This document shows positions 25,868-61,712 of a stretch of 64,000 nt of DNA, piece after piece. The stretch is from an uncultured delta proteobacterium (GTDB lineage Bacteria > Desulfobacterota > Desulfuromonadia > Geobacterales > DSM-12255). The position numbers were made by a program, and so were the translations under genes. Within the stretch, counting starts at the first letter, position 1. Each line of letters starts with the position of its first letter. The notes under the pieces are model-generated. The model was not told the DNA's origin. It saw only the letters and a list, made by a program, of their open reading frames with translations, and searched no databases. The DNA is taken from assembly GCA_963810975.1 (NCBI GenBank), contig CAWEPN010000004.1, forward strand, positions 1,157-65,156. The letters are read 5' to 3'.

Positions 25868-25985
25868 TGTAGAGCTGCAGGTATTCTAAGCTCATTCCGC
25901 TACAGCAGATAAACTCGCTTCGCTCAGACAGTATCTGCTGTATGCTGCATTTCGCCAAGAATTGCCACGAACAGCCGAGGCTCTC
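25868..25985 (+). repeat. Family-B structured repeat, core-only copy, in the hypC-hypD spacer
   Basis: AAGCTCATTCCGCTACAGCAGATAAACTCGCTTCGCTCAGACAGTATCTGCTGTATGCTGCATTTCGCCAAGAATTGC. Contains the ACAGCAGATA/TATCTGCTGT stem. Confidence 0.55.
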
Positions 25986-26017
25986 ACAGGCATCTCAACT
26001 ACTGCATCGAGGTGACT

Positions 26018-27097
26018 ATGAACTACCAGGATGAATTCCGCCAGAAAGAGCTGTGCAGGGGCTGGGCGGATTCGAGCTTGTCTCCGGCTGCGCACGATGA
26101 ACTTTATGGAGGTTTGCGGCACCCATACCATGGCGATCTACCGCTTCGGACTGCGCTCCCTGCTCCCCCCCGAGATAAAGCTCATTTCCGGTCCCGGTTG
26201 TCCGGTCTGTGTCACCCCCAATGATTACCTGGATCGGGCAATAGCCATCTGTCGGCTTCCTGAAGTTATAACCGTTACCTTTGGCGATATGATGCGAGTG
26301 CCGGGTTCGAGCGCATCACTCCTCGAAGAGCGGGCAAAAGGGGCGGATATCCGGATTGTCTATTCGCCTCTCGATGCTGTAGCGATAGCGGCAAAGAACC
26401 GTGAAAAAAAAGTGGTCTTCCTCGGGGTAGGGTTTGAAACAACCGCACCGACGATTGCCGGCAGCATACTGACAGCCGAGGCGCAGGGGCTTGCCAACTA
26501 TTTTGTCCTGGCGGCGAACAAGACTATCCCTATTCCAATGCAGGTGCTGGCTGCCGACCCGGAGATTGCCATCGATGGCTATATCTGTCCGGCTCATGTC
26601 AGCGCGATCATCGGTGCGGATGCCTATAAACCGCTGGCTGAAAAATTCATACCCCGTGCGTAATTACCGGCTTTGAGCCGGCTGACATGCTCCAGGGGAT
26701 CCTCATGCTGGCGGGGCAGCTGCTGGCCGGTGAAAGCCGGGTCGAAATCCAGTACAGCCGGGTGGTGCGGCCGGAAGGGAACCTGAAGGCTCAGGCAATG
26801 CTTGCGAAGATGTTCGACCCTTGCGATGTCTCGTGGCGCGGTATCGGTGTAATTCCAGGCAGCGGGTTGCGGATCAGGGATGAGTACAGCCGTTTTGATG
26901 CTGCAAAGATGATTCAGGTTGAGGTTGAACCGACAAAAGAACATCCTGGCTGTTCGTGCGGCGAGATTCTTAAGGGGAAGATGCAGCCGAACGAGTGCGC
27001 ACTCTTCGGCAATATCTGCACTCCCGAGAGTCCTGTCGGCGCCTGCATGGTGTCCAGCGAAGGGAGTTGCGCGGCTGCGTACCGGTATGGTCAGTAG
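26018..27097 (+). CDS. hypD: Hydrogenase maturation factor HypD; two apparent frameshifts
   Basis: MNYQDEFRQKELCRGW, then MEVCGTHTMAI...GPGCPVCVTP, then ...CSCGEILKG...CTPESPVGACMVSSEGSCAAAY. Track ORFs 26012, 26031 and 26687 are successive pieces. GAGGTG RBS before the ATG at 26018. Confidence 0.7.
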
Positions 27098-27130
27098 ACA
27101 GAAGACAGAAGACAGGAGACAGAAGGATTC
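27095..27130. repeat. Short tandem heptamer (AGACAGA/AGACAGG) x about 4
   Basis: AGACAGAAGACAGAAGACAGGAGACAGAAGG, immediately after hypD. Confidence 0.5.
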
Positions 27131-27186
27131 AGGCGTGCTTTTCTCCTGAATACTGTATTCTGACTTCTGTTTTCCAGGGAGATTCA

Positions 27187-28431
27187 ATGAAACGCGTTGT
27201 CATAGCCGGTATGGGATTCGGCGGTGTCCGGGCAGCCCGGGAGCTTGCAGGTCAGGGGGTCGAACTTATTCTTGTTGACCGCAATAATTATCATCTTTTT
27301 CAGCCGCTTCTCTACCAGGTGGCGACTGCTGGCCTTGAACAGGAGTCTATCGCCTATCCGATCCGGGCCATGGCGCGAAGCTGGCCGGGGGCCCGTTTTC
27401 TGCTGGCAGAGGTGACCGGCGCGGATCTTGATGCCAAGGAGCTGCAAACTTCTGCCGGAACCATCGCGTACGATTACCTGATTGTCGGCGGCGGCAGCGT
27501 CACCAACTATTTCGGCAACGAATCAATAGCCCGCCATGCGTTTGACCTGAAAAAACTTGCCGATGCCGAACAGCTCCGCAATCATATCCTCTGGTCGTGT
27601 GAAAAGGCTGCCGCTGAAAAAGACCCTGAGCGGCGCCGGGCGCTGATGACCTTTGTTATTGTCGGGGGCGGTCCGACCGGCGTTGAATTTTCCGGAGCAC
27701 TGGTTGAGCTGATTCATTTTGTCATATCCAAGGATTATCCCGAACTGCAGTCGCGCGAGTCACGCGTTCTGCTCGTAGAAGCTGCTGACAGGATACTGTT
27801 GGCAATGCCGGAAAAACTCTCCCGTTATTCGGAAAACAAGCTTCGCAAGATGGGGGTTGAACTGATGTTCGGCCGTAAAGTTGTCGGCGCGACGGCCGAG
27901 ACAGTTGAGCTTGACGGCGGAGAGATCATTGCTGCGCACACTCTCTTCTGGTCAGCAGGTGTCTGTGCCGCCCCGCTTGCCGGGATCCTCGGCCTGCCGC
28001 AGGGGGCGGGGGGGAGAGTTCCTGTCGAGGCCGATCTTTCGGTCAGAGATCGTCAGGATGTTTTTGTAGTCGGCGACATGGCGCTTTTTGAACAGGACGG
28101 AGCACTGCTCCCTATGGTCGCGCCAGTGGCGATGCAGATGGGAATTCATGCGGCAAAAACCATTCTGGGCAGAGAGTGGGAACGGCCTGTTGCACCGTTT
28201 CGCTACAATGACAAGGGGAGCATGGCTACCATCGGCAGGAGCGCCGCAGTGGCAACCACTCATGGTCTGAATCTGACCGGCTACCCGGCCTGGCTGGCGT
28301 GGCTGCTGCTTCACCTCTACTATCTGATCGGCTTTCGTAACCGGACAGTGGTGATGCTGAACTGGGCTTATTACTACTGGTTCCATGAGCGGCAGGTAAG
28401 GTTGATTACGGACAGCAAGAAGACAGACTGA
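27187..28431 (+). CDS. ndh: Type II NADH dehydrogenase (NDH-2)
   Basis: MKRVVIAGMGFGGV Rossmann motif and a second dinucleotide fold VIVGGGPTGVEF. 414 aa from the ATG at 27187. Confidence 0.85.
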   Translation: MKRVVIAGMGFGGVRAARELAGQGVELILVDRNNYHLFQPLLYQVATAGLEQESIAYPIRAMARSWPGARFLLAEVTGADLDAKELQTSAGTIAYDYLIVGGGSVTNYFGNESIARHAFDLKKLADAEQLRNHILWSCEKAAAEKDPERRRALMTFVIVGGGPTGVEFSGALVELIHFVISKDYPELQSRESRVLLVEAADRILLAMPEKLSRYSENKLRKMGVELMFGRKVVGATAETVELDGGEIIAAHTLFWSAGVCAAPLAGILGLPQGAGGRVPVEADLSVRDRQDVFVVGDMALFEQDGALLPMVAPVAMQMGIHAAKTILGREWERPVAPFRYNDKGSMATIGRSAAVATTHGLNLTGYPAWLAWLLLHLYYLIGFRNRTVVMLNWAYYYWFHERQVRLITDSKKTD

Positions 28432-28536
28432 TTCATTGTTCCGGGCTGATCTTGGTAGCTTTGGTTATAATGTTTAGATCAGCTTGACGCACTTACGAGT
28501 TGAATTCATTATTTTCGTTCTTGCGCATCTGGTCTT

Positions 28537-31500
28537 TCAAACGGGGTCGGCAATGGCGGCGTAAATCTGATCCATGCTGGCGTAGCTTGAGCCCTGCTTG
28601 CGCATATGGTTTTGTATCGCCTCCAGCCGCAGCCGGATGCTTTCTTCGGCCATCTTGCGCAGTGTGGCGGCTTGCTGGTCGATCTCTTCTCTGGCTATGG
28701 GTGAATCTGTCAGGGAGATGGGGGCCAGTTCGATATTGAGCCGGTTCCTGCAAAAACTCCGGAGAAGCTGCAGGTGGTTCTCGCCGAAGGAGAATACCTC
28801 GGGGACCAGTGAAGAGAAGCTGTAGACCGGCAGCACGTCCTTGCCGAGTTGCCGGTAAGAGTCAAGCAGTTCCGGTTCCAGGTCGAAGTAGTTCTTCACC
28901 GGCATATACATGCGCTGCAGATACTGCAGGACTTTCTCGGTCTTTTTGCGGTGACCGCCGATGATCACTGATGCGCCGATCTCCCCTTTGTTCGCCCCTT
29001 TGATCCAGGGTGCGCCGGTGATGCCGAAATCATTCAACACCGGCAGGTTGATTAATACCGAGAGGGTGTTGATCGCCAGGGCGAAACCGGCTGAGGGGCC
29101 GCCGACGTTATAAGAGGCGGAGAGCAGCTGGTGGTGAATCGAATAACCGTCAAGGAATTCACCCAGCAGTCGCGACATATTCACATCCGGCAGGAGTGAC
29201 TGCAGGTAGCACTCAACCAGGGTCAGCGCTTCACGGGAACTCTGGTGAGTCATCTGTACCGCCAGATCGAGTTCCGCTCCGGGGGCGGAACTGGTCGAGA
29301 CCGCGCCGGTTACGACAATCTTTTCCGGATACATCCGGTAGACCAGCGTCGAGGCGATCGGCAACAGCACGCCACTGGTATCGTTGGCGCCGACTCCGAC
29401 GACAAAACCGACCTGCGGTTCTCTGGATAATTCGGTTTCCAGGAATTCATCGAGCTGCTGTTTCCCCTTGCGCTGCGGGCTGGCAGCTAACTGCTGGCGG
29501 GCGTTAAGCAGGTGCCAGCGGGTGACCGGAAAGTCTTTATCGGTTTTTATTCCGGAGAAACAGGCGAATATTTCATCCAGCCGCTCGAGCATCCCCTCTT
29601 CCCCTTGCCGGGCCTTTTGGGTCAGGGCGCTGTTTGGGCTCAGCCCTTCAAGAAGACCGAGCAGAATCTTGTAATTGAAACGGACAAAACGGGTTTTCTC
29701 CTCGCTGTCTGCAGCGCTGGTGCTCAGCAGCTTCTGGATGACTTCCATTTCGGTGGTACGCAGGGAGCGGATCTTCTCGGCATAGGCGGTGTAGTCCGCC
29801 GGTGTTTCGCAGATGGTATTGCTCTGGCGGGTGATCTCCTCAATCGTCAGTTCGTTGGCAAGCGGGATCCCGGCCAGCGCCTGGCTGATGATCCGTGAGC
29901 GGTCCTCGTCGCGCAGATGGCCGGTGACATTCAGTACTTTAAGCCGTTTCGAGCGGATCAGCGCCGGGTCGATGATGTCCAGCCGGTTGGTGGTCAGCAC
30001 GGTAAAGACTCGATTCAACGGGGATTCGCCATCGATGATGGAAAGGAACTTGTTGGTGATCTTGTCATAAGGGCTCCCCCCCTGCGGTGAACGGCGCGGG
30101 GCTATGGCATCCCCTTCGTCGAAAAATACGATCGCCGGAGAGATCATCTTGGCGATATCGTAAATCCGTTCCAGGTTCGCCATCATCCCTTCGAGGGGGC
30201 TGTTGACATCGGTCAGATCCGAGAGATTGGCGGCAATATCCTGAACATCATGATTATTCCCCAGCCAGGCGCGGACCAAAAAGGTCTTTCCCGAACCGGG
30301 TGGCCCAGCCAGGACAACTCCTTTTTCCTCGTTGATATTGTAGAAAAGGGCGTTGTTGGCCATCTCGGAGAATTCGTTCTTGATGGTGCCAATATACTCC
30401 TTCCAATCGATGCTGCGGTCGAGCTCGCCGACTACCTTGTTGTAGAGAGAACCATGAACATTGCGCGCCACCGATTTGAGTGCGTCGCGGATCAAAAGCT
30501 GGTCATCGAGGAACTCGGTGAGAAAATGCCCCTTGATGGTAATCAGCGAGTCGATGAGTCTCCGGACATAAGACGGGGTGATACGCAGGCTGCGCTGACG
30601 AAAGATCGGATAAAGTTTTTGTACCGAGAGGTCAATTTCTTCTTCCGAGAGGTGCGGCGGTCGCTCAGCCAGGGGATCCCTAGGGTGGTTGCTCCGGCGT
30701 AGTTCCAGGCAGACCACCTCTCGCAAATTGGCCGGGTCATCCCAGATCTCGTTGACGTCGATGATCATTCCCCGCTCCACGAAACGGCGGTAGATCGCCG
30801 GATCGAACTGTTCCGGCTGATCAGTGGTGGCGATAACGATACAGTCGCGCCGACCATAGGCGATCTCATCAAGGATTATGTTCGCGGCATCGACCAGGGT
30901 GGCCTGCTGACCTTTGATTGAGCTGCGTTCGTCCGGGCGGCCGAATGCTGAATGCGCTTCTTCCAGGTGACGAATTGTCGGCATGCGCGGGTCGCCCATT
31001 GCTTTAAGCAGGTAGTTGCCCGGTTCTCCTGCCCAGGCGGTCTGATAGTCGTTCGGCGTGATAACGCCGTGATCGACCCACACCCCCTCTTCGTCGAGAG
31101 TGGAAAGGGCCTGGCTGATCCGGTTGCGGAAAAGATAGCGGATGAGCGGCAGCCGTGAGTAAAAGCGGAGTCTGGTGCGTTTGCGGCGTCGCTCGATACG
31201 GATTGCCAGTTCAGGGATCTACATCGATCAAGCTGCGCCAGATCGGTTGATCGGCCATTACCTCTTCCCGCTTGGCGTCCAGATCGACAACCGGTTTGAC
31301 TTCAGAGGAGAAGAAGGCCTCCTCGATTGCCTGCTTGACCGTGGCGCTCTTGCCGCTGCCTGAATTGCCGATCACCAGAACCAGGGGCGCACGGGGAATC
31401 AACGGATCATCACTGTATTCCTTGAGGATAAAGGCGTGATAGAGCCGGTCGAATAGCTCTTTAATCGACCTGGGCACAAAAGTGTCGACGGTTTCTTTTT

Positions 31501-35334: not shown

Positions 35335-35430
35335 TCAAATCCTCACCGTAGCTTCCGCTACGCCTGCGGTTTTCCTCAATCGGATCGACAAAATTCGACC
35401 TAAATCTGAGCGCCTCAATGGATAATTTTA
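35335..35430 (+). repeat. Conserved about 95-nt upstream element (family C), copy 2, upstream of the macA-like gene
   Basis: AAATCCTCACCGTAGCTTCCGCTACGCCTGCGGTTTTCCTCAATCGG...CTAAATCTGAGCGCC. Shares CGTAGC..GCTACGCCTGCGGTTTT and AAATCTGAGCGC blocks with 21557-21650. Confidence 0.5.
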
Positions 35431-36760: not shown

Positions 36761-36763
36761 AAG

Positions 36764-38749: not shown

Positions 38750-38900
38750 CATTTGAAACACGGAGCAACTGAGCAACAGAGTAAAAACAAAAGATAGACT
38801 TTTCTCGAAAAAACCGTTTTAAGACTCACCTTTTTGGTGAAAGACTGTTGCTGATGTAACCAACTGATTTCTCAGTTGCTCCGTTGCTCTGTGTTATTTG
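38750..38900. repeat. CACAGAG-type palindromic intergenic element, copy 10; lies between convergent genes
   Basis: TTGAAACACGGAGCAACTGAGCAACAGAGTAAAAAC ... TTTCTCAGTTGCTCCGTTGCTCTGTGTTATTTG. Confidence 0.7.
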
Positions 38901-40518: not shown

Positions 40519-41346
40519 TCAGGAGCTGGCGCCGTTTCCGGGAGGAGTCCCGCCAGAGAGCGCCGGTGAAACTGGCGAAGCTGCGGAAAAAGCCTGTAGC
40601 CGCAGATCAAGCAGATGGCGCGGCTGGACATTGGCCAGCGCTCTCAAGAGGCTCCGTTTGACATGGGGGATTGATTGCTGCAGATCGGTCAGGAGCTGTT
40701 TCATCTTCTTGCGCTGCATGTCAGCCGTACCGCAGACCGGACAGCAGCAGCAGACAACGGGGAAACTGTTCTCTCGACAGAATTGAATTATCTCCTTCTC
40801 CTCAACATAGACCAGCGGCCTGATGACGGTTGTCTCACCGTTGTCCGCCAGCATTGACGGCGCCATTGCCTTGAGGGAGCCGACAAAAAACTGATTGAGA
40901 AGCAGCGTTTCAATAAAGTCGTCGAGGTGGTGTCCGAGAGCGAGTTTGTTGCAGCCGAACTGCTTTGCCAGGGTATAAAGCGAGCCGCGCTTCAGCCGGG
41001 CGCAGATGGAGCAGTAGGAAGAGTCGGGGCGGCGCTTCTCTTTTATGATGTCGAAGTGGTTGGATTTTTCAAGATGATAGTGGAAGTTGTTTTCTTCCAG
41101 ATGTTTTACAATTACGTCGGAACGAAATCCGGGATAACCGGAGTCGATTGTTATGGCGACAAGTTCATAATTGATGGGGGCTCGTCGCCGAAGTTCGTCA
41201 AGAATATGAAGCAGAGAGTAAGAGTCTTTGCCGCCTGACACGCCGACAGCAATCCGGTCCCCGTCCTGAATCAGCGAAAAGTCGGCAATCGCCCTGCCAA
41301 CGGCATTTTTGATTTTTGTGTAATGGCGGTTTTTGAGTAGCGGCAT
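40519..41346 (-). CDS. ttcA: tRNA 2-thiocytidine(32) synthetase TtcA (PP-loop ATPase with Fe-S cysteines)
   Basis: PP-loop SGGKDS. CxxC pairs (CSIC, CPVC). Confidence 0.82.
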   Translation of the reverse strand: MPLLKNRHYTKIKNAVGRAIADFSLIQDGDRIAVGVSGGKDSYSLLHILDELRRRAPINYELVAITIDSGYPGFRSDVIVKHLEENNFHYHLEKSNHFDIIKEKRRPDSSYCSICARLKRGSLYTLAKQFGCNKLALGHHLDDFIETLLLNQFFVGSLKAMAPSMLADNGETTVIRPLVYVEEKEIIQFCRENSFPVVCCCCPVCGTADMQRKKMKQLLTDLQQSIPHVKRSLLRALANVQPRHLLDLRLQAFSAASPVSPALSGGTPPGNGASS

Positions 41347-42242
41347 TATAGATCCTGCTCCTGAAGTAAAAGACGGGTTCGAAGGGCAAAGTCGTTGAAT
41401 AGCCCATCGAGCGGCGCTTCAGCCCGGATTGTCTCACCCCTGCTTCCTCGAAAACTCATGCTGCGGCAGTGGAGCAGCATCCGTTCAGCCGGAGCGCCGC
41501 CATAAGGTGCGTCGCCGACTATGGGGAGTCCGCAGTGAGTCAGGTGGACACGAATCTGATGAGTGCGGCCGGTGACAGGTCTTGCCTCTATCAGGGCATA
41601 TTTGCCGGCGGTGGAGATGACACGGAAATTTGTGACAGAGGGCTTGCCGGGTAGGGTTACCCCGTAGCGGAACTTGTTCAGCTTGCCGATGGGCGCATCA
41701 ACAGTCCAGCGGGTCTCTTCGGGCAGATCGGCTACAATCGCCCAGTATACTTTTTCAACACGACTGTCTTTAAGCTCTGAAGAAATATAGGTGGCAGCCG
41801 ATTTGTTTTTCGGAAAGAACATGACGCCGGATGTGCCGCGATCAAGGCGATGAATGACCCGTGCCGGCTCGCTGCTCCCTTGCTCTTTGAGATACATTGC
41901 AACTGCATATTCAGCTGTGCCTTTAAGCTGGTAAGGTGTTCGCTGGCTATTAATTCCGGAAGCCTTATTAAGAGCCAGGTAGTTGCTGTCTTCGTAAAGG
42001 AGTTCTTCTTTGACGAGCCTGACATCAACAAAGCGCTCCGCTTCCATCACGCCGATAATGATTTCATCCCCCCGCCGGACTTCCCGGGAAGCAACCCGCA
42101 CCATGGTCTGGTTGACTGCACAGCCGCCGAGGTCTATGATCCGGCGAATCTGGGTTTTAGAGAGTTGGGGGAAGATGGTTTTTGCGGCATCATCAAGGCG
42201 TAGGCCGGACTGATCCGAAGCGACAAATGAGGAGAGAATCAT
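41346..42242 (-). CDS. RluA-family (RluC/D-like) 23S rRNA pseudouridine synthase
   Basis: S4 domain plus catalytic HRLDRGTSGVMFF. 298 aa. Confidence 0.8.
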   Translation of the reverse strand: MILSSFVASDQSGLRLDDAAKTIFPQLSKTQIRRIIDLGGCAVNQTMVRVASREVRRGDEIIIGVMEAERFVDVRLVKEELLYEDSNYLALNKASGINSQRTPYQLKGTAEYAVAMYLKEQGSSEPARVIHRLDRGTSGVMFFPKNKSAATYISSELKDSRVEKVYWAIVADLPEETRWTVDAPIGKLNKFRYGVTLPGKPSVTNFRVISTAGKYALIEARPVTGRTHQIRVHLTHCGLPIVGDAPYGGAPAERMLLHCRSMSFRGSRGETIRAEAPLDGLFNDFALRTRLLLQEQDL

Positions 42243-42368
42243 ATCCGCCAGTCTACTACGCCGACTGTGGTGCTGTACAGCGTAAATATTGCCGCGCCTT
42301 CAAGGAGATAAGTTGGAAATGGGACACCAAATCTGCTAGAAATAAAAGCCGGAGATCCTGGCAGTAAT

Positions 42369-42577
42369 TATCCTTAAAATGGCAGTTGGAGGTGTTCTGA
42401 AGAAGCGACTTGCCCGTAATTCGTCGTAATGCTTAGCGAAATGTAACGTCCGCAGCAGATATTGCCTGAACCCGCAGGGTAAGGACGTACACAGTACCTT
42501 TGGCTGCTGCAGTGAAATGAGCTTAGCATTACAGAATTCGGGCATTTAGAGCGCCGAAGGACATCTTTAACTGCCGA
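42369..42577 (-). mobile_element. Family-B element, full-length copy D, reverse orientation (MITE-like, about 208 bp with imperfect terminal inverted repeats)
   Basis: Reverse complement is near-identical to 61505-61712. Ends TTCGGCAGTTAAAGATGTCC / CACCTCCAACTGCCGTTTTAAGGA. The internal track ORF 42336-42545 is considered non-coding. Confidence 0.65.
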
Positions 42578-42636
42578 ATCTAGGATTATTTGTAAAGTTT
42601 GGCGGAGTCTATTTCATTATCAGGGAGTATCGGGCT

Positions 42637-43164
42637 ATGATTGAACTGTTGCGAAAAAGGCGGAGTATAAGGAGCTTTAAGCAGGAAAAAGTTGCTCCTG
42701 AACTTATTGCTACAATAACTGAAGCGGCTTTACGAGCCCCTTCGTCACGCGGCATAAATCCTTGGGAATTTATTCTGGTGGATGATCCTGAAATCATGCT
42801 GCAGCTTTCAGATGCAAAGCTGCACGGCGCTGCATTTTTAAAAAATGCGCCGCTTGGGATTGTCGTCTGCGCCGACACTACGAAGTCAGATGTCTGTGTC
42901 GAAGACTGCTCGATAGCGGCAATTATCATTCAGCTGACAGCCCTCTCGCTGGGGCTGGGTAGCTGCTGGGCGCAGATGCGCAAGCGCAAGCACAGGAGCG
43001 GCATAGACTCGGAATCTTTTGTGAGGGATTTGTTGGGGATGCCTGAGCAGATCATGGTCGAAGCCATCATCGGCATAGGCTATCCTGCTGAGAGCAAGAC
43101 GCCGGTGCCGATTGAGAGTCTGCAGCGCGAAAAAATCAGACATAACTCCTGGAGTGGCAAGTGA
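42637..43164 (+). CDS. Nitroreductase-family flavoprotein
   Basis: RRSIRSF, PSSRGINPWEF. 175 aa. Confidence 0.8.
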   Translation: MIELLRKRRSIRSFKQEKVAPELIATITEAALRAPSSRGINPWEFILVDDPEIMLQLSDAKLHGAAFLKNAPLGIVVCADTTKSDVCVEDCSIAAIIIQLTALSLGLGSCWAQMRKRKHRSGIDSESFVRDLLGMPEQIMVEAIIGIGYPAESKTPVPIESLQREKIRHNSWSGK

Positions 43165-43331
43165 CAGGGCAGATGCCCGGGTATGTCGAACCGCTGTTTC
43201 GCCCTCCCAGCGAAGCCAGAAGTCTGATTTTTCAGATTTCCATCGGCTGCTCGCAGAATTCATGCACCTTCTGCGGGAGGTATAAAGGCAAGAAGTTTCG
43301 GATAAAACCACTTGGCGAACATTACGACTAA
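43161..43331 (+). pseudogene. Radical-SAM protein N-terminal fragment (56 aa) ending where the family-B element remnant begins
   Basis: VTGQMPGYVEPLFRPPSEARSLIFQISIGCSQNSCTFCGRYKGKKFRIKPLGEHYD* with the Cx3Cx2C SAM cluster. Translation stops inside repeat-homologous sequence (the homology starts about 43320). Not in the ORF track. Confidence 0.55.
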
Positions 43332-43380
43332 TTACGGGCAAGTCGCTTCTTCAGAACATCTCCAACTGCCGTTTTAAGGA
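43320..43380 (+). repeat. Family-B element, solo right-end fragment (about 61 bp)
   Basis: CATTACGACTAATTACGGGCAAGTCGCTTCTTCAGAACATCTCCAACTGCCGTTTTAAGGA. Two mismatches to the copy-C terminus. Confidence 0.7.
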
Positions 43381-46300
43381 TTATTCTTCCAGCAGTGCGG
43401 TGATCTTCTCCATGAAGGCATCGACAGTGAACGGTTTTTGAATAAAACTTATTCCCTCCTGCAACCGTCCGTCCTTGATAAAGACGTCGTTGGTGTAGCC
43501 GGACATGTAGAGAACTTTGCCGATATCAGCGAGCTCGGCTGACAGTCGCTCGAAGAGTTGCCGGCCGTTCATCCCGGGCATTACCACGTCGGTGATAAGC
43601 AGATCGATCCTGCCGATCTGCTGCGCCCGCTCCAGTGCCTTCATAGGATCGTCTTCCAGGTAGACCCGGTAGCCGAGTCCGGTCAGAAGTTCACCGACCA
43701 TCTCCCGGACCATCTCGTTGTCTTCCACCAGCAAGATAGTAGCGTTGCCGCCCTGATCCGCAACGGCAGCTTCCTTTTCCTGCCCGGCAGGTGGTAAAGG
43801 GCTGGCCGATGCCGGAAAGTAGATTTTAAAACAGGTCCCCTTGCCAACCGTGCTCTGCACTTCGATATAACCGTTATGCTGTTTGACTATGCCGTAGACA
43901 TTGGCCAGGCCAAGACCTGTTCCGTGGCCGACCGGCTTGGTGGTGAAGAATGGCTCGAATATATGCTGCAGAACTGAATCGGTCATACCGCAGCCACTAT
44001 CCCTGCACGACAGCAGGACATTCATTCCGGCGGTTATTTCCGGATGGCTGTGGGCGTACTCGTCATCTATCAGGACCTGCCCGGTCTCGATGACTATCGT
44101 GCCATTGTTGGCAATGGCGTCCTGAGCATTGATGGCCAGATTGAGGATAATCTGCTCAACTTTTGAACGGTCAGCCATTATCACCTGGGGCTGCGGGGAG
44201 AGTTGCAGCTGTATATCGATGTTTTCGCGCAGGGGACGGCGGATCACCGGGAAAAACGAGTTGACGATTTCATTAAGATCAAGGGGACTGGTCTGCATTA
44301 TCTGTTTTCGTCCAAAGCCGAGCAGCTGGTTGGTCAGGTCGCGCGCCCTGAGCGACGACCTGCTGATAGCATCCAGCATGCTGTGCGTTTTCTCGTCATC
44401 GGTGGGAGTTATTTTTTTCAGCATGTCGGCACAGACCATGATCGGCGTCAACAGGTTGTTAAAATCATGGGCCATCCCTCCTGCCAGATGGCCGATGGCT
44501 TCCATTTTTTGCGACTGGTGCAGCTGCTCTTCCAGGGCATTCCGTTCTGTTTCGGCCCGATGGCGCTCGATGGCAATACCGGCAAAGGCAGATGCCTGTT
44601 CGATCAGGCGGAGTTCATCCTCTCCTGGGGATAAAGGCTCCCGGTGATAAATGGCAAAGGTGCCGAGCAGCTTGCCGGAGGAAGAGAATATCGGCTCTGA
44701 CCAGCAGGAGCGCAGACCGGCTTCCTCTGCCGGAGTGAATCCTTTCCAGAAGGGGTGCGTGGCAATATCTTCGACAATAACCCGCTGTCGACGAAATGCC
44801 GCAGTCCCGCAGGAACCGACCCCCTCGCCGATTTTCGTACGATTCACGGCGCTATTGTAGGCAGCCGGGAGACTCGGTGCCGCGCCAGTGAGAAGCCGCT
44901 TGCCATCCTCACTGATCAGCAGGATCGAACAGAGCGCACCCGACCGCTCCTTCTCCACCGACAGGGCGATAAAACCGAGCAGCTCTTGCAGCGAATCTCC
45001 CCGGGCGATCCGCTCCAGCATCTCCGAACGGACATGTTCACGCATCTCCGATTTCTTCAGTTCGGTAATATCCTTGATCAGATGCACCGCCCTGACGATC
45101 CTGCCGGCCTTGTCAAAGACAGGGTCCAGTGAAACATCGTACCAGCTGGCGCCGACCTGCAGCTCCATGACAGCCCGCCTGCCGCTGGCAACCATCTGGT
45201 CAAAAGGACAATTTGCGTGGGGTGCCGGACTGTTGTGGGCGATGTCGCAGCAGCTCCTGCCGCAAACCTCCTGGGCCGAAAGACCGAAAATTGTCTGAGT
45301 GGCCTTGTTGGCGCGGATAATGATCCGTTCCATGTCAAGGAGCCAGATGGCATCGGCCGAGGAGTCAAAGGTCTCCTGCCATTCCTGGGCAGTCACTGCC
45401 AGCTTCTGTTCGGTCAGCTTGCGTTCACTGATGTTGCGCACGACGCTCAGGATGAATGTTTTACCCTGTATCTCGATAGGTCTGGCATGAACCTCGATAG
45501 GTACAATACTGCCGGACAGATGCAGATAGGCCGACTCAAATTGGGCGTCGCCACCGCGGGCAATCAGTTTTTGAATGTTTTCCACAACCCTGGCGGCATA
45601 TTCCGGTGGCTCAATCTCCTGGATCAGCCGGTTTTCCAACCCTCGCGACTGTACCCGGAAATACGACAAAGCGCTTCATTGAAGTAGCAGAGTCTGCCGG
45701 TGACATCGAGAAGAAGTACTGCATCGGTAGCTGAATCAAGTAATTCAACCTTGGTGCGGTTGTCTGACTGTTCCATATTAAGCAGGTCGTTGGTATCTTC
45801 AAGGAGTTTAAGCTGCCGTAGAAAAAGCAGGGAGAGCAGAAAGATGACCGCCATCAGCAGGAGTAAAACAGACCCTTGCACATAACAGGAGGACAACCAG
45901 TGGGCAGTGACATCTGCCTTGCTCATGGAAACGATGGCGACTAGCGGCAGGCTGTCAAAGGCATGGTAGGAGACGATGCTCATGTCGCCGCTGACCGGTG
46001 AGATAAAGTGGTGCGTTCCGGTGCGTGCTGCCGGGATCATGGTTTTAAAAAGGCTGGAGGCGGCAAGATCAACCAAAGGTGGTTTGTCCTGATGCGGTTC
46101 CATGATGAGCATATCGCCGCCGGTCGTTGCGAGAATTATCCGGCCTTGATTGCCGACACTGAGGGACTTGTAAAAGTTCTCAAAATACTTTGTCTCGAAG
46201 GTTGCCGCTACTAGCGCAATTAACTTGCCGTCAGCGTTGCGCACGGAGCGGCTGAGGCAGAAGCGGGAGGTGCCGCTTACCCTGCTGGTAAACGGCTTTG

Positions 46301-49892: not shown

Positions 49893-50029
49893 ATAAAATC
49901 ATCTTTGAATTTGTCGCTCGGTCTAACATGATGAAACTGCAACTCCAATTTGCAGTTGTTTTCATTTGACTACTAAACTGGCGGCTGTTAAAGCTTTTCA
50001 AAATTGAAGATCAATCGATATGGTGCCGT

Positions 50030-50280
50030 ACCTTTAGCGGGTACGGATAATAGGGAAGAGGGTGAAAAACCCTCGCTGTCCCGCAACTGTAAGGGTGTAC
50101 TGATCTCGCACAATACCACTGGGGAAACCTGGGAAGGGGCGAAATCGGGTTGATCCCCAAGCCAGGAAACCTGCCATTCCGATGCTGTTTTGGAACCTCC
50201 GTGGAAAGAGGGGCCGGGACCGGAGTGTATCCACACACCACGATTTCGACCCCTTCCGACACCGGACAGGGGTTTTTTGT
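50030..50280 (+). promoter_or_regulatory. Probable TPP (THI-box) riboswitch with a terminator-type expression platform in the thiC leader
   Basis: ACUGAUCUCGCACAAUACCACUGGGGAAAC resembles the conserved CUGAUCYGGAUAAUACCRGCGNAGGGA half. The 5' half has GGGUG but an atypical CUGUAA in place of CUGAGA. A CCCCT...AGGGG TTTTTT attenuator lies at about 50240-50275. The leader is about 340 nt. Confidence 0.5.
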
Positions 50281-50331: not shown

Positions 50332-51642
50332 ATGTCAACCCAGATCGAATTCGCCCGCCAAGGCATTATTACTTCACAGATGCATACCGTGGCTCTTAAT
50401 GAGCAGCTTGAAGCGGAGTACATCCGCCAAATGGTGGCCGAAGGTAAAATAGTCATACCCTGGAATCATAACCGTAAACCCTCAAGGATTGCAGGGATCG
50501 GTAAAGGGTTGTCAACCAAGGTCAACGCTTCTATCGGCACCTCCTCGGATATTGTTGACTACAGTGCGGAGGTGCAAAAGGCTCTGGCGGCTCAGGAAGC
50601 CGGTGCTGATACCCTGATGGAACTTTCCGCAGGCGGTGATCTTGATCGGGTAAGGCGCGAGGTGCTTGCCGCCGTTGAACTGCCGGTCGGCAATGTTCCG
50701 CTCTACCAGGCTTTCTGTGAGGCTGCCCGCAAATATGGCGATCCCAACAAGCTTGACGAGGAGATGCTCTTCGATCTGATCGAAAAACAGTGCGCCGACG
50801 GCATGGCTTTTATGGCGGTTCACTGCGGTATCAACCTTTGCACCATCGAACGGCTTCGGAAGCAGGGGTATCGCTATGGCGGGCTGGTTTCCAAGGGGGG
50901 CGTATCAATGGTTGCCTGGATGATTGCCAACAATCGTGAAAACCCGCTCTACGAAAAATTCGACCGGGTGGTCTCGATTCTTAAGCGATACGACACAGTG
51001 TTGTCGCTTGGCAATGGTCTGCGTGCGGGTGCTATTCACGACTCCTCTGATCGAGCCCAGATTCAGGAGTTGATTTTTAACTGCGAGCTGGCCGAAATCG
51101 GTCGAGAGATGGGTTGCCAAATGTTGGTGGAAGGGCCTGGGCACGTTCCACTGGACGAGATTGAGGGGAATATTCAGTTGCAAAAGCGGATGAGCGGCGG
51201 GGCGCCATATTATATGCTTGGCCCGATTACTACAGATGTGGCCCCCGGCTTCGACCACATCACTGCCGCCATAGGTGCAGCCCAATCGAGCCGCTTCGGT
51301 GCTGATCTGATCTGTTACATTACTCCTGCGGAGCATCTTGCTCTTCCCAATGAGGAGGACGTGCGTATGGGGGTCAAGGCTGCCAAGATTGCGGCATATA
51401 TTGGCGATATGAACAAATATCCGGAAAAGGGGCGTGAGCGGGATAAGCAGATGTCCAAGGCCCGGCGCGATCTGAACTGGGAAAAGCAGTTTAATCTGGC
51501 ACTCTATCCTGATGATGCTTGTGCTATTCGCGCGAGCCGTACCCCTGAAGATGAAGAGACCTGCACCATGTGTGGCGACTTCTGTGCCTCGCGCGGCGCT
51601 GGCAAGCTATTTTCCGCTGATCTGAAAGGTGATAAGCTCTGA
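50332..51642 (+). CDS. thiC: Phosphomethylpyrimidine synthase ThiC
   Basis: TKVNASIGTS and the C-terminal CTMCGDFC cluster. 436 aa. Confidence 0.9.
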   Translation: MSTQIEFARQGIITSQMHTVALNEQLEAEYIRQMVAEGKIVIPWNHNRKPSRIAGIGKGLSTKVNASIGTSSDIVDYSAEVQKALAAQEAGADTLMELSAGGDLDRVRREVLAAVELPVGNVPLYQAFCEAARKYGDPNKLDEEMLFDLIEKQCADGMAFMAVHCGINLCTIERLRKQGYRYGGLVSKGGVSMVAWMIANNRENPLYEKFDRVVSILKRYDTVLSLGNGLRAGAIHDSSDRAQIQELIFNCELAEIGREMGCQMLVEGPGHVPLDEIEGNIQLQKRMSGGAPYYMLGPITTDVAPGFDHITAAIGAAQSSRFGADLICYITPAEHLALPNEEDVRMGVKAAKIAAYIGDMNKYPEKGRERDKQMSKARRDLNWEKQFNLALYPDDACAIRASRTPEDEETCTMCGDFCASRGAGKLFSADLKGDKL

Positions 51643-54694: not shown

Positions 54695-54742
54695 AGTATC
54701 CTCCGTATTACTTTTATTAGTTTACAGACTTCCTCGACCAGT

Positions 54743-55099
<357 letters not shown>

Positions 55100-55269
55100 T
55101 TATCTGCACAATCATTCATTAGCTGGCTGCATGAATCAGAAGTTGAAGGCTGCCTTCAGACCGACAACGCTCTGATCCTTTTACTCATGGGGAGGATCAG
55201 GCTTCATTTCTGGCTGTGGAATTAAATGCGTTGGAATACAGGTAATATGGGAGAAATTTTGAATGTTAT

Positions 55270-55890: not shown

Positions 55891-56120
55891 TGTACCCCTT
55901 TGTAGTAGATTTGGTGATCATTCACCATGTGTTGAACAGTTAGTTAAGGTATCGCTGTGAATTCAGATTTTGTTTAAATACTTAGCATAAGCCGTGCCAT
56001 CAGTTGATAACTCAGTATTTACCGACTGTTAACCTGATTTTAATCACTCAAAGGGATGCTTGCTCCCCAACCTGTCCTAATAAACCTGCACAAAATTTAA
56101 TCAGTGAAGGCAGAAAAGCA

Positions 56121-56714: not shown

Positions 56715-56950
56715 TGATTTCGCCTCCTTAGGAGTGGTGCAGAGCAGAGCACCACCGACTGATACCCAAGTAAAAGCATCAATCGAGCCAATACCGAATT
56801 TATAAAATATTTTGACTTATTTAAAAGGAGAGTGAGACAGGAGAGACCCAAAAATTGCTTCAAAGACTGCCCGGATCAAGAGAAGAATGAACAAATCCAG
56901 TCAGTTGGAAGCTTGCTGGAAGAGAACATCAGGCTTTTCCGGACAGGCCC

Positions 56951-57768: not shown

Positions 57769-58719
57769 TGCAGGCTGCCCGGGCAAACTGCATATCCTGG
57801 CCGATAAGGCCGATTGCATCAGCCCGGCACTGTTTGCAGTGTTTGAACTGGCCGATAATCTTTTCGTTGGCAGACTGAACAGCGGCAATCTCCTCGCTGT
57901 TGGCGGAGTAATGCCGGCAAAATCGGACTGGGGGATAATCGGCATGACATTCATGACAAATGCCCCCAGTGACTTGACTTTTTCGGCAATCAACGGGATC
58001 TGGGCATCGTTGACCCCCGGAATAAGGACGGTATTCACCTTGATGGTCATGCCGTAAGCAGCGGCGCTTTTCAATCCGGACAGCTGGTTGGCGATCAGGA
58101 TTGAAGCTGCCTCTTCCCCGCTGTAGCGCTTGCCGTGATAATTGATGTGGCTGTAAATCTTCGCTCCGACTGCCGGATCAAGCGCATTGACCGTAACCGT
58201 CAAACTGTGGAGATCCAGCGCCTCAAGATCATCGATCCGCTCAGGTAGAAGCAGACCGTTGGTGCTCATGCATTTGATCAGGTGGGGGAACTCTTCACCG
58301 ATAAGCCGGAACGTCTCGAACGTCTCTTCATTTGCCAGCGGATCGCCAGGCCCGGCAATGCCGATAACCTTGATCAGTTGACCGAGCATCTCGCTCGCCA
58401 TGACTTCACGAACCTTCTCGATAGCCTCCAGAGGGGTCATTATCCGGCTGGTAACCCCGGGGCGGGATTCATTGGCACAGTCGTGACGGCGGCTGCAGTA
58501 GCCGCACTTTATGTTGCATTTCGGCGCAACCGCAAGATGCATCCTGCCGTTCTTGTGATGATTACCGCCAAAACATGGATGGCCCTGAATGTTTTTTCTT
58601 CCGGAACATGCACTTCCCATGACGTACCCCCTTTCTCTGTAAAAAGAGCCCTGCAGAGAATGCTCCTGCAGGGCTCCATTGCCCGACGTAAATTCTGTTT
58701 TAATTTTGCCGCGTTGCAA
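57758..58719 (-). CDS. nifB: NifB-type radical-SAM protein (SAM domain only, no NifX-like C-terminal domain); frameshift near 57880
   Basis: HPCFGGNHHKNGRMHLAVAPKCNIKCGYCSRRHDCANESRPGV signature. True C-terminus ...KHCKQCRADAIGLIGQD...ACSAS* found in the +2 frame, with the stop at 57758-57760. Confidence 0.7.
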
Positions 58720-58966
58720 CTCACCTTTGCCTAAACTATGCCAACAGCCCTAATCCGCAAAAAAACAGCTAGTTACCGTTTTCTTGGAATTCAGGCAGGA
58801 GAATTTTGAAACTGTTTTTGTTGAGGGCTGCGGCAGAGCTGATTACTCATTAAGCAGATTCCCAGATCAAAACGAGACCGCTAATCCCTTAAGCCCCTTG
58901 ATTAGCGATTTTTCTTACTGGCACGTTAAGTGAAGTACAAGTTGAAACACCAGGAAGGAGGGGTAT

Positions 58967-59197
58967 ATGGAATCAGTTAAAATGTTGACCGTAGAAGAAT
59001 CTGCCGAGGCGCTTGCCACCACAAAGACGAAAATCCTGATGCTGCTGAAAAACGGCGACCTGAAAGGAGAGGAGAGAGAAGGAACGTGGTTTATTGACGC
59101 CGACTCCCTGGCCTGCGCAAAATCGCACGGTATTGACATGAAGACAGCAAAAGGGTGCGCCAGCTATTGCAACTCCGGCGGCTGCGGTTGCAACTAA
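58967..59197 (+). CDS. Small HTH (excisionase/MerR-like) protein with a Cys-rich C-terminal tail
   Basis: LTVEESAEALATTKTKILMLLKNGDLKGEEREGTWFI is an HTH_17-like pattern. Tail KGCASYCNSGGCGCN. 76 aa. GGAGG RBS. Confidence 0.55.
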   Translation: MESVKMLTVEESAEALATTKTKILMLLKNGDLKGEEREGTWFIDADSLACAKSHGIDMKTAKGCASYCNSGGCGCN

Positions 59198-59204
59198 ATC
59201 TGGA

Positions 59205-59396
59205 TTCAGCAGTTGAAAGCTGCCTACAGTCGAGCAGACGTGCTATTTCTGCAATTCCAAGCTCATTTCGCTACAGCCGATAAACTCACCCTTTGGGTTC
59301 AGACAGTATCGGCTGTTGACGCTCCATTTCGCTAAGAATTGCAACAAAATAGCCCTGATGCTCTCATTCCGGCACCTTCCAACTGCTGGTTTGAGG
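59205..59396 (+). mobile_element. Family-B element, full-length divergent copy A (about 192 bp)
   Basis: Terminal inverted repeats CAGCAGTTGAAAG / CTTCCAACTGCTG. Core stem ACAGCCGATA/TATCGGCTGT with substitutions compensatory relative to copy B. Confidence 0.6.
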
Positions 59397-59415
59397 ATAA
59401 ACGGGAGGTACTATC

Positions 59416-59712
59416 ATGGGCATCATGGTCAAAGCTTCAGATCTTTACTACCGCTACCCGAAAGAGACAACAACCCGGCATGTCGCCAAATTCAGCGGCA
59501 AACCCGACAGGGCACCGTTCAATCGTGACGATCTCTACGATGTTCTCCCCATGCTCGGCGCAGTTATGGATGAGCTCGGCAGCGATGAGCAGAACACCCT
59601 GCAGATAGCTGAAGAAATCATGATTCGTGAACTACCGCGCTTCATCGAGAGTCGGGAAGATGTGTTCGACTTCCTGGTCGGTTGTACGAATGAAAAGCTG
59701 GGGAGAGCGTGA
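59416..59712 (+). CDS. Hypothetical 98-aa protein, translationally coupled (ATGA overlap) to the downstream draG-like gene
   Basis: GGGAGG RBS. No recognisable motif. Acidic C-terminal half. Confidence 0.5.
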   Translation: MGIMVKASDLYYRYPKETTTRHVAKFSGKPDRAPFNRDDLYDVLPMLGAVMDELGSDEQNTLQIAEEIMIRELPRFIESREDVFDFLVGCTNEKLGRA

Positions 59713-60614
59713 TTGCAGCCGATGAACTGCTGAGCCGCAGCAAAGCTGTTCTGCTCGGTGTTGCGGTGGGGGATGCCCTTGGCGCACCGGTCGAGTTCAT
59801 GACACCTGGCGAGATTGCCGCAAAATACGGCAGATTGGATGAAATGGTAGGCGGCGGCTGGCTGCGGCTCAAACCCGGCCAGGTTACCGACGACACCGAA
59901 ATGACGCTCTGCCTTGCCCGGGGGATCGTCAATTCCGGCGATTGGGATCTGCGCGCGATTGCCGGCGAGTTTGCCGGCTGGCTCAAATCAAAGCCGATAG
60001 ACGTAGGTGACACCTGTCGGCGCGGTATCCGGAACTTCATGTTGAAAGGGGAGCTGGAGACACCGCCAAATCAGTGGGATGCCGGTAACGGCGCCCTGAT
60101 GCGGATGACTCCGGTTGCGCTTTATTCCATTGGCAATGATGAACTTTTAGAAAAATATTCCCGGGAACAGGGACACCTGACCCACAATCACCCGCTCTCC
60201 GATGCCGCCTGCATAACCTACGGCCGGATGACCCAGATGGCGCTGCTGGGTGCCGAAAAAAGCCGCTTGCGCCGCGAGGCGGAGAGGCTTGTCGCAGAAT
60301 ATCCCACCTTCAGGTATGACCCCTATCCCGGTCTGGCAACAGGCTATGTTGTCGATACCATTCAGACAGTATTCCACTATTTCTTCCGCAGCCGTTCCTT
60401 TGAGGAGTGCATAGTTACAACCGTCAACCGGGGCGGCGATGCCGACACCACCGGCGCTATAGCCGGAGGGCTGGCCGGCGCCTACTACGGACTGGAGGAT
60501 ATCCCGCGCCGTTGGCTGAAAAAGCTTGATGGCCGCTACCTGGCGGAACTGAAGTCCCTTGCCTCAAAACTGATTAATCTCTCACCGTACCGTAGCAATA
60601 CCTACAGCAAATGA
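59709..60614 (+). CDS. draG: ADP-ribosylglycohydrolase, DraG-like (ADP-ribosyl-[dinitrogenase reductase] hydrolase family)
   Basis: ARH fold motifs GVAVGDALGAPVEF, DDTEMT, GGDADTTGAIAG. 301 aa. Confidence 0.75.
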   Translation: MIAADELLSRSKAVLLGVAVGDALGAPVEFMTPGEIAAKYGRLDEMVGGGWLRLKPGQVTDDTEMTLCLARGIVNSGDWDLRAIAGEFAGWLKSKPIDVGDTCRRGIRNFMLKGELETPPNQWDAGNGALMRMTPVALYSIGNDELLEKYSREQGHLTHNHPLSDAACITYGRMTQMALLGAEKSRLRREAERLVAEYPTFRYDPYPGLATGYVVDTIQTVFHYFFRSRSFEECIVTTVNRGGDADTTGAIAGGLAGAYYGLEDIPRRWLKKLDGRYLAELKSLASKLINLSPYRSNTYSK

Positions 60615-60761
60615 AAAAGCCAGCTCTATCATGCTGCCAAATCCAGCGGACTGCGCACCCCGCGACTTCCCTTGTTCAGCTCGTGAGTATAGATTATATT
60701 AGATTTTACACTTGAAAGGACTTCAGTTTAAGTCCAGCGGATTCATATGGACTAAATGAAC

Positions 60762-61016
60762 TCAGTAGTGATAGCGACAGGCGATAACCACAATCTCTGT
60801 TTCTTCCACTTGGTAGACAAGCCGATGTTCCCGGTCAATCCTGCGAGACCAGCAACCGGCAAGCTGAAAACGGAGAGGTTCCGGTTTTCCTGTGCCCTCA
60901 AAAGGGGTTCGCCGAATTTCTTCAAGAAGTGCTAAGACCCGTTCTGCCTGGCGTTTATCAGTCTTTAGCCAATACCGCAGGTCGTCGAGAGCAGTCGGTG
61001 TGAAAGTAACGTTCAT
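60762..61016 (-). CDS. yoeB: YoeB/Txe-family toxin (RelE superfamily)
   Basis: 84 aa. FTPTALDDLRYW...GKPEPL...WSRRIDREHRLVY. Confidence 0.85.
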   Translation of the reverse strand: MNVTFTPTALDDLRYWLKTDKRQAERVLALLEEIRRTPFEGTGKPEPLRFQLAGCWSRRIDREHRLVYQVEETEIVVIACRYHY

Positions 61017-61267
61017 AACCCAAGAGCATCCATGGGGGTTCGCTTTCCAGACCGTGCCTCTTTAAGTGATTGCAGTAGTCGTGAAGCATTAGCAGGACTG
61101 GAAAGCAAATATTCGCTCTCCATAATAGACTCATAGTCTTCCAAGCTTACGAGAACCACGCTTTCACCTTTTCGACGCGTGATCAGGATCGGTTCATGGT
61201 TACTGCAAGCATCGTCCATAACATTCTTAAGGTCATGGCGTGCTTCGCTATATGTAATTGCCTGCAT
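61013..61267 (-). CDS. yefM: YefM/Phd-family antitoxin
   Basis: MQAITYSEARHDLKNVMDDA...ILITRRKGESVVLVSLEDYESIMES. GGAGG RBS 5 nt upstream of the internal ATG at 61267. Overlaps yoeB by 4 nt. Confidence 0.8.
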   Translation of the reverse strand: MQAITYSEARHDLKNVMDDACSNHEPILITRRKGESVVLVSLEDYESIMESEYLLSSPANASRLLQSLKEARSGKRTPMDALGL

Positions 61268-61504
61268 ATCAACCTCCATAATGACAAGATATTGTACAAT
61301 AACATGCTGAAATTTAAATGGCAAGAAGAACGACTTTATGGAGAATGAAGCATATTCTGTGGTCAAGAAAATGGGGTGGTGTCAAACCTGCTCTCTTGAT
61401 AAAGTTAATTGTGTCGGCTTGACACTATGTTTTTCTTGCTAAAGCGGCAAAACCCCTTTGACGAAACGGAATAAACCGGTAGTATTAAGTAATATAAACT
61501 TAAA

Positions 61505-61712
61505 TTCGGCAGTTAAAGATGTCCTTCGGCGCTCCAAATGCCCGAATTCTGTAATGCTAAGCTCATTTCACTGCAGCAGCCAAAGGTACTGTGTACGTCC
61601 TCACCCTGCGGGTTCAGACAATATCTGCTGCGGACGTTACATTTCGCTAAGCATTACGACGAATTACGGGCAAGTCGCTTCTTCAGAACACCTCCAACTG
61701 CCGTTTTAAGGA
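61505..61712 (+). mobile_element. Family-B element, full-length copy C (MITE-like, about 208 bp), forward orientation
   Basis: Near-identical inverted duplicate of 42369-42577. Track ORF 61538 begins inside it. The real nfeD start is downstream. Confidence 0.65.

Follow-up and report, generated by a model that had tools for sequence, protein, structure and literature searches.

A Short Mobile Element with a Folded Core Conserved across Bacterial Phyla in a Geobacter-like Genome

Locus and Copies of the Element

The stretch of DNA analyzed here (64,000 nucleotides (nt), positions 1,157 to 65,156 of contig CAWEPN010000004.1, assembly GCA_963810975.1; hereafter the window) belongs to the Geobacter-like genome of an uncultured delta proteobacterium and displays, between its genes, a family of repeats with terminal inverted repeats and a central hairpin. 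These repeats are copies of a ~200-base non-coding transposable element of the miniature inverted-repeat type (MITE), recently inserted at several sites of the genome. The MITE itself is an ordinary kind of element; its unusual feature is the folded core, conserved across several bacterial phyla. All copies in the window are intergenic, and the open reading frames (ORFs) that overlap them are spurious only. Copy B is located between hypC and hypD, whereas copy C separates a YefM (antitoxin)/YoeB (toxin) pair (60762-61366, minus strand) from nfeD (ATG at 61733), with a promoter-like site just upstream of the copy (61458-61485). Crev, in the opposite orientation, is located where a pseudouridine synthase gene (41346-42242, minus strand) and a nitroreductase gene (42637-43164, plus strand) diverge, and copy A terminates 19 nt short of the ATG (59416) that opens a 98-residue ORF, followed by an ADP-ribosylglycohydrolase gene. 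In addition, a solo 3′ end precedes the sequence ATTAT (43380-43384), and this sequence shares positions with the stop codon of a histidine kinase gene (43381-45669, minus strand).

The five copies proposed by the initial annotation of the window are all recovered by direct reading of the sequence and by an unbiased repeat scan. The unbiased scan of the window discloses (i) the inverted pair I1, 42360-42589 and 61494-61723, 96% identical over 230 nt; (ii) the direct pair D6, comprising the solo end, 43320-43380, and 61652-61712, 97% identical; and (iii) the blocks D4 and D5, which correspond to the core common to the copies. The pattern AAGCTCATTYC-N45-75-CATTTCRCYAAG matches exactly four cores in the window, with 0 expected from shuffled sequences, and the covariance model scores the same four cores at 87-126 bits, the next best match reaching 12 bits. 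Applied to 460 kb of unrelated metagenome loci, the model gives 0 false matches and one true match, which adjoins the pseudouridine-synthase gene of a relative at a different site. In the loci analyzed, it adds four copies missed by the strict pattern, including pairs less than 8 kb apart, resembling the clustering observed in the window.

The terminal inverted repeats of the element read CCTNGATTCGGCAGTTG...CAACTGCCGKTTTTRGG, and copies A, C, and Crev each start with CCT/TCT/CTT-N-GATT and end with TTTRAGG. The ends first assigned to these three copies fall short of the true termini, which lie 6-8 nt further out (Table 1), and the segment 25868-25985, previously described as core only, proves to be part of a degraded full-length copy. 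The recognition of a repeat family with terminal inverted repeats was thus sound, although the 5-bp duplications, the ISEcp1-like termini, and the MITE nature of the family had been missed.

Termini, Target Duplications, and Empty Sites

When the flanks of more than 40 copies with the same termini are aligned, the Geobacter-type element starts with CCTNGATTCGGCAGTTGGAGG and ends with CCTCCAACTGCCGKTTTTRGG, usually comprises 198-199 nt, and has a direct repeat of 5 bp on its two sides. The duplication is perfect (5/5) in 21 of the 33 copies with canonical ends and matches at 4/5 positions in another 7, compared with 4.2% perfect matches when the flanks of different copies are paired as a control. 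The target conforms to the consensus W-T-N-A-W, the second position being T and the fourth A in all 21 perfect duplications. In the window, Crev is flanked by ATAAT on both sides, a perfect duplication, copy A by CTAAA (59194-59198) and ATAAA (59397-59401), a 4/5 match, and copy C by ATAAA and ACGAA, a 3/5 match.

The insertion events can be read directly from related loci that lack the element. A metagenome contig (L111), 91-93% identical to window positions 41231-42998, passes from 42585 straight to 42371 and contains ATAAT once; this exact empty site of Crev therefore fixes both element boundaries and the 5-bp duplication. Two further loci (L192 and L193), with nfeD ~88% identical, carry 24-26 nt upstream of nfeD in place of copy C, and L193 is collinear on both sides, with the equivalent of 61439-61489 followed directly by sequence matching 61721 onwards. 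Since they are absent from these loci of relatives, Crev and copy C are lineage-specific insertions, marking recent events that separate the host lineage from relatives 88-93% identical to it.

The family therefore displays attributes by which bacterial MITEs are recognized, namely a short non-coding sequence (198-213 nt), terminal inverted repeats, a duplication of fixed length, an exact empty site, and many dispersed copies (4-5 in the window). Deletion derivatives and a nested insertion sequence (IS) are also observed among the copies, as expected of transposons. Specifically, locus L049 contains, at ~4400-4480 (minus strand; plus-strand positions 3459 and 3518), a mini-derivative of 80 nt in which both terminal repeats are retained and the core is entirely lost; persistence of the ends is thus possible in the absence of the core. 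In locus L101 (CAWFFO010000008.1, 88001-96000), an insertion of ~1.96 kb bearing its own terminal repeats, A[A/G]CCC[G/A]TCTTCCGCAG, splits a MITE copy precisely where the core starts and represents a nested IS.

Table 1. Copies of the element, their cores and target duplications in the window, and the P1 stem in four groups of genomes
Feature	Position	Strand	Description
MITE copy A	59199-59396	+	198 nt, full length; left end TCTGGATTCAGCAGTTGAAAG, right end CTTCCAACTGCTGGTTTGAGG
MITE copy C	61499-61711	+	213 nt; C subfamily with 15-nt insertion in core
MITE copy Crev	42372-42584	-	213 nt, full copy; 97.2% identical to copy C, opposite orientation
Target-site duplication ATTAT (ATAAT on the Crev strand), left copy	42367-42371	.	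single in the L111 empty site
Target-site duplication ATTAT of Crev, right copy	42585-42589	.	single in the L111 empty site
Solo 3′ end, C subfamily	43320-43379	+	60 nt; 96.7% identity with the copy C end
Copy B, degraded full-length	~25846-26012	+	ends mutated; ~22-nt deletion in left arm
Copy A core	59243-59350	+	covariance model, 126 bits
Copy C core	61543-61665	+	covariance model, 94 bits
Copy B core	25872-25973	+	covariance model, 87.5 bits
P1 stem, Geobacter			ACAGCCGATA / TATCGGCTGT
P1 stem, Thermodesulfovibrionales			ACATCCTCGA / TCGAGGCTGT
P1 stem, Bacillota			GCAGCAGCAA / TTGCTGCTGC
P1 stem, Desulfobacteraceae			GAAATTGAAA / TTTCAATTTC

The Inverted Pair

Copy C and Crev differ by six transitions in 213 nt, in agreement with the few differences first reported for this inverted pair, for which either recent transposition or gene conversion had been put forward, together with a capacity to invert the intervening 19 kb. 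Outside the element, the similarity covers 4/5 nt on the 5′ side and 9/12 nt on the 3′ side, and thus ends 5-12 nt from the element ends. Both 3′ flanks (42355-42371; 61712-61723) contain the heptamer TACTGCC 5 nt past the element, a sequence that resembles AACTGCC of the element itself. At the Crev site this heptamer is native, being present in the L111 empty site, and part of the copy C flank (GCCGGTGGTGCC) is likewise native, as judged from the homologous sequence in L193; its occurrence at both sites may reflect a target preference or a coincidence.

From these observations we infer that the pair represents recent insertions of one subfamily. A segmental duplication or a gene conversion in place of transposition could account for the 97.2% identity and for the similarity extending 12 nt past the 3′ end, TACTGCC included, and 5 nt past the 5′ end, but it is hard to reconcile with the stop of that similarity within 5-12 nt, the perfect duplication and exact empty site of Crev, the absence of copy C from L192 and L193, and the native GCCGGTGGTGCC segment; this reading is already largely refuted and can be regarded as highly improbable. 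Of the two processes first considered, transposition is the one that stands. Regarding the 19-kb interval, an inversion is mechanistically possible, and none occurred in this sequence, because the duplications on either side of Crev still match and the two junctions, collinear with those of relatives that lack the element, are in the ancestral arrangement. The GC skew, considered as a further sign of inversion, is +0.004 in the segment between the two copies, compared with ~+0.05 to +0.06 outside, a difference that may stem from the mixed gene strands of the segment.

Fold, Covariation, and Level of Selection

Copy A folds as a single rod with an RNA folding energy of -75.6 kcal/mol (z -6.8), and copy C folds likewise with DNA parameters (z -5.6). 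The compensatory changes were evaluated on 43 diverse cores aligned with MAFFT, the alignment not being fitted to any structure, with helices P0 and P1 predicted by RNAalifold and the apical hairpin added by us. In this set, 91.3% of the cells are paired versus 69.3% in shuffles (0/500), the double-change cells amount to 189 versus 57 in shuffles, and 19 of the 21 pairs show compensatory changes; controls in which the helices were slid reach 27-43% paired. The stems quoted in the initial annotation are correct, and the covariation first noticed in the window copies extends to these diverse relatives, as illustrated by the P1 stems of four groups (Table 1).

The core also preserves unpaired, strand-asymmetric motifs, namely CUAAGCUCAUUYCGCU, AAACUC, UCARACAG, and CAUUUCGCYAAGA, with CAUUUCGCU, AAACUC, and UCAGACAG as the conserved loops. 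Invariant positions are also found outside the search pattern, comprising AACTC, TC..ACA, and the CT that precedes AAGC. The unpaired motifs are all located on one strand and motifs of the TCGCT type occur in both arms, which argues that the rod is no simple fold-back duplication.

Two young Geobacter subfamilies (18 and 11 copies) disclose the level at which the fold is maintained. Substitution rates at paired and unpaired positions are 0.035 versus 0.041 in the former and 0.037 versus 0.056 in the latter, and the single mismatches comprise 25 G.U and 21 A.C (p = 0.66). Given these approximately equal rates and the similar numbers of G.U and A.C, individual copies decay approximately neutrally and carry no RNA-specific wobble signal. 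The covariation arises between subfamilies, and selection appears to act on propagating lineages and not on each locus. The earlier proposal of selection on the structure, as RNA or single-stranded DNA (ssDNA), thus holds between subfamilies and lineages, whereas the individual loci of young subfamilies look unconstrained, and the data fit RNA and DNA equally well.

Distribution and Subfamilies

Scanning a collection of species-representative genomes with the core pattern gives 107 matching stretches, all in metagenome-assembled genomes (MAGs); all but three (L060, L078, and L095) are true copies. Most copies reside in Geobacteraceae MAGs. The long-read MAG CAWFFO01 contains more than 25 loci and JAAZOO01 contains 18, and another MAG displays many copies at contig ends. 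Separate subfamilies are found under the labels Thermodesulfovibrionales/Nitrospirota, Smithella, and Desulfobacteraceae, among others, and in a single Bacillota MAG (13 contigs). The core is common to MAGs labelled Geobacteraceae, Nitrospirota, Bacillota, and other Desulfobacterota, with different outer ends. Attempts to define the ends and duplications of the non-Geobacter copies by greedy extension or minimum-free-energy folding gave spurious boundaries and were discarded. No match to the element was found in the plasmid collection, and the three matches of the end pattern among viral contigs all fall on a single coding sequence of a phage and are attributed to chance.

The Bacillota variant (MAG OH_HDB_150; L002, L044, L048, L053, L056, L057, L066, L068, L082, L087, and L102) comprises ~340-380 nt, with different terminal repeats, GGGGATGTTGCATAAT... 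and AGAAGGATGCGACATA..., and an added terminator-like hairpin followed by a T-run (GGGAACGGTTCTAAACCGTTCCGCTTTT) on the strand of the core. In a different MAG (OS_PC_MetaG.mb.142; L007 and L088), both copies display a 17-nt direct repeat, GCTATTCTCATACAAAC, one unit ~100 nt upstream of the rod and the other directly past its downstream end.

The orientation of the copies with respect to the flanking genes is unbiased overall, with 24 sense-tandem, 19 antisense-tandem, 19 convergent, and 17 divergent arrangements, and the corresponding numbers in the largest MAG are 5/5/6/6. The Nitrospirota-type copies comprise 11 sense-tandem and one antisense-tandem (binomial p ~0.006). Locus L083, from another Geobacter MAG, contains a MITE (3608-3795) in a region syntenic with that of copy A, between a radical-SAM/GNAT gene and the ADP-ribosylglycohydrolase operon; it belongs to a different subfamily and occupies a different exact site, and consequently a shared insertion was rejected and the two insertions are considered independent. 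L074 and L098, considered as an orthologous pair for conservation in situ, were set aside as they have only the element in common.

Effects on Neighboring Genes and Other Features of the Window

Copy B is now part of the coding and translation signals of the hyp operon: the stop codon of hypC (TAG, 25857-25859) is located inside the left end of the copy, and the GAGG that terminates the copy precedes the ATG at 26018 by 6 nt, the position expected of a Shine-Dalgarno sequence for hypD. The hypD gene itself (26018-27097, plus strand) occupies two or more reading frames; the ATG at 26018 opens a HypD-like N-terminus (MNYQDEFR), positions 17-203 of the Pfam HypD family match the ORF 26031-26663, and positions 217-351 match the ORF 26687-27097. 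The split gene represents either a pseudogene or assembly frameshifts.

The longest NfeD ORF (61538-63019, plus strand; 493 residues) begins at an ATG inside copy C, and a protein in a public database uses this start and is 65 residues too long. NfeD homologues comprise 423-437 residues and align from the ATG at 61733, so that the start of the long form is probably mis-called. At the local scale, the identification of the element thus explains a set of intergenic repeats and corrects at least one gene start, that of NfeD.

A separate family of tandem heptamers (CTCTGTG, TCTCAGT, GTTGCTC, etc.) is found at 4950-23350 and 38750-38900, in both orientations and in many intergenic regions (D1-D3, D9, and I4-I12); it is presumably the 'first' repeat family implied by the initial annotation. 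The window also comprises a full-length cobalamin riboswitch (50004-50192, plus strand; 125.9 bits, E 3e-31) upstream of the ORF 50332-51642, and a 57-nt direct repeat (21575-21631 and 35357-35413; GCTACGCCTGCGGTTTT...AAATCTGAGCGC), 79% identical and unrelated to the MITE family.

Candidate Mobilizing Enzyme

Transposons of the IS1380 family duplicate 4-5 bp of their target. The ends of the MITE, which begin with CC, and its 5-bp duplication suggest a member of this family as the mobilizing partner. The best comparison is provided by ISEcp1, with the left repeat CCTAGATTCTACGT and 5-bp direct repeats (PMC6061673); the annotated copy on plasmid pEK204 displays the ends CCTAGATTCTACGTCAG... and ...CACGTGGAATTTAGG. 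Side by side, ISEcp1 reads CCTAGATTCTACGT / ...GGAATTTAGG and the MITE CCTAGATTCGGCAG / ...GGTTTTAGG. The left end of the MITE, CCTAGATTC, is identical to the ISEcp1 left repeat, CCTAGATTC, at 9/9 positions, and its right end read inward, CCTAAAACC, matches the ISEcp1 right repeat, CCTAAATTC, at 7/9, the right ends reading ...AATTTAGG in ISEcp1 and ...TTTTAGG in the MITE. Both elements generate 5-bp AT-rich target duplications; the MITE thus combines CCT-type ends matching a family member with a duplication of the appropriate length. On the other hand, the MITE contains no transposase gene and spans ~200 bp compared with 1.66 kb, the ends are unrelated past the first 9 nt, and the W-T-N-A-W target leaves less freedom than the duplications that PMC6061673 gives for ISEcp1. 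The IS1380 partner is therefore a candidate, deduced from nine terminal nucleotides and the duplication length.

Interpretation

Taken as a whole, the data are best explained by an IS1380-type MITE whose fold is maintained in propagating lineages, a reading to which we assign a probability of roughly 75%. The element is a non-autonomous DNA transposon of ~198-213 bp with terminal inverted repeats, which duplicates 5 bp of an AT-rich W-T-N-A-W target upon insertion and whose copies are dispersed in intergenic DNA in both orientations. Its movement would depend on a DDE transposase of the IS1380 (ISEcp1-like) family, acting in trans from a gene located elsewhere. The whole element is predicted to fold as a long rod, with a central core of ~100 nt comprising three covarying helices (P0, P1, and the apical hairpin). 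The core is common to multicopy MITE-like repeats with different outer ends in MAGs labelled as other phyla, and the folded rod may be required for the propagation or the tolerance of the element; it could act as a folded transcript, or by a hairpin extrusion that brings both ends into proximity. Amplification would continue in lineages retaining the fold, and single inserted copies would then decay neutrally.

Several observations weigh against this explanation. Copy C is without a clean target duplication, and TACTGCC lies 5 nt beyond both 3′ ends of the inverted pair; outside Geobacteraceae, the outer ends differ and the duplications could not be defined. In 1.3 Mb of loci, a tblastn search with the ISEcp1 transposase finds no IS1380-like transposase, no longer element displays the same ends, and no neighboring protein or gene family recurs. 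The ISEcp1 duplications TAATA, TAAGA, and ACTCA (PMC6061673) do not fit W-T-N-A-W. Finally, a plain MITE in which the ends alone matter accounts neither for the conserved asymmetric loops nor for the stronger conservation of the core relative to the ends.

A rival reading sees in the rod primarily a functional structured RNA that happens to occur in multiple copies, whether as a small RNA gene, a cis-acting leader, or an intra-operon element that affects how the mRNA is processed, stabilized, or terminated. Strong covariation and conserved unpaired motifs confined to one strand fit such a role, as do the Thermodesulfovibrionales/Nitrospirota copies, 11 of which lie in sense between co-directional genes and one in antisense, the terminator-like hairpin and T-run on the same strand of the Bacillota variant, and the four window cores, 4/4 in sense and upstream of a gene, with the promoter-like site just upstream of copy C. 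However, the Geobacter-type copies lack an orientation bias, and the young copies show neither an excess of G.U over A.C nor a difference between paired and unpaired substitution rates. Moreover, no promoter or terminator consensus is present inside the window copies, and no Rfam family matches them: at the gathering thresholds of the families the window yields the cobalamin riboswitch only, and a search relaxed to E<=10 gives no family match, the best values for copy A being E=2.6 and 3.8. The lack of a recurrent neighboring gene family, together with the target duplications and empty sites that mark the copies as insertions and not as conserved regulatory loci, makes the structured RNA unlikely.

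The same asymmetric loops and covarying stems are also a signature of ssDNA recognition sites, and the element could move as ssDNA, the hairpin serving as the recognition structure of an HUH/Y1 enzyme (IS200/IS605 or REP-RAYT type) or of another ssDNA recombinase. The lack of an RNA-specific wobble signal is compatible with this alternative, the Nitrospirota orientation bias could reflect a coupling to the replication strand, and the inverted 3′ ends (I2) flank a 175-residue ORF in a RAYT-like layout. That ORF, however, encodes the nitroreductase and not a Y1 transposase, and the gene has the same neighbor in L111 without the element, so that both a RAYT/REP system and a composite transposon carrying the nitroreductase were rejected. 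IS200/IS605 and REP elements have neither terminal inverted repeats nor 5-bp target duplications, both of which the Geobacter-type copies display, and no HUH gene recurs next to the copies; movement as ssDNA is accordingly quite improbable. A broader proposal, speculative and with the odds well against it, holds that the ~180-nt rod with its three strand-specific internal loops is an undescribed and widespread structured nucleic acid, RNA or ssDNA, with a function of its own, which would persist in at least three phyla on different transposon ends (ISEcp1-like in Geobacteraceae, others in Nitrospirota and Bacillota), the core being a selected 'cargo' or an active part of the mobility and not filler.

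MITEs are usually conserved at their ends and variable inside; in the element described here, the interior is conserved, covarying, and common to MAGs of different phyla. Should the fold be required for mobilization, the family would provide an accessible model for the recognition of non-autonomous elements; should the core act as RNA, it would represent a new widespread motif.

Comparison with Known Families

A literature search with the motifs of the element returned only an unrelated plant marker study containing 1/4 motifs, and the core and end motifs are absent from the supplementary repeat tables of Geobacter genome papers. Among the closest known elements is Chunjie, the published MITE of Geobacter uraniireducens Rf4 (Chen et al. 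2008), for which later accounts give a length of 178-235 bp, terminal repeats of ~21 bp, a very stable predicted hairpin, and many full and partial copies, including one inside an operon (PMC3184786, PMC10969869, PMC6042816), with 9-bp direct repeats such as ACGACCGGT (PMC6042816). Compared by description only, both are MITEs from the same bacterial family with a similar size and a stable hairpin, and are set apart by the 9-bp repeats of Chunjie versus the 5-bp W-T-N-A-W duplications of the present element. This difference in duplication length points to a different transposase family for Chunjie, and identity of the two elements was rejected on this basis.

A further comparison is provided by bcr1 of the Bacillus cereus group, for which Okstad in 2004 and Klevan in 2007 reportedly predicted a stable RNA fold with compensatory changes. 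This interspersed repeat spans ~155 bp, and its ends are associated with the 5-nt motif TTTAT (PMC6542083). Again by description only, bcr1 differs in being limited to one species group. The families ERIC, Correia (CREE), and RUP comprise small imperfect-palindrome MITEs, located in intergenic regions and inside operons, co-transcribed with their neighbors and able to form long hairpins. The present element resembles them in its small size and imperfect palindrome, its intergenic and intra-operon locations, and its long hairpin. To our knowledge, however, each of these three families is confined to one family or genus, whereas the core described here occurs with different outer ends in MAGs of at least three phyla.

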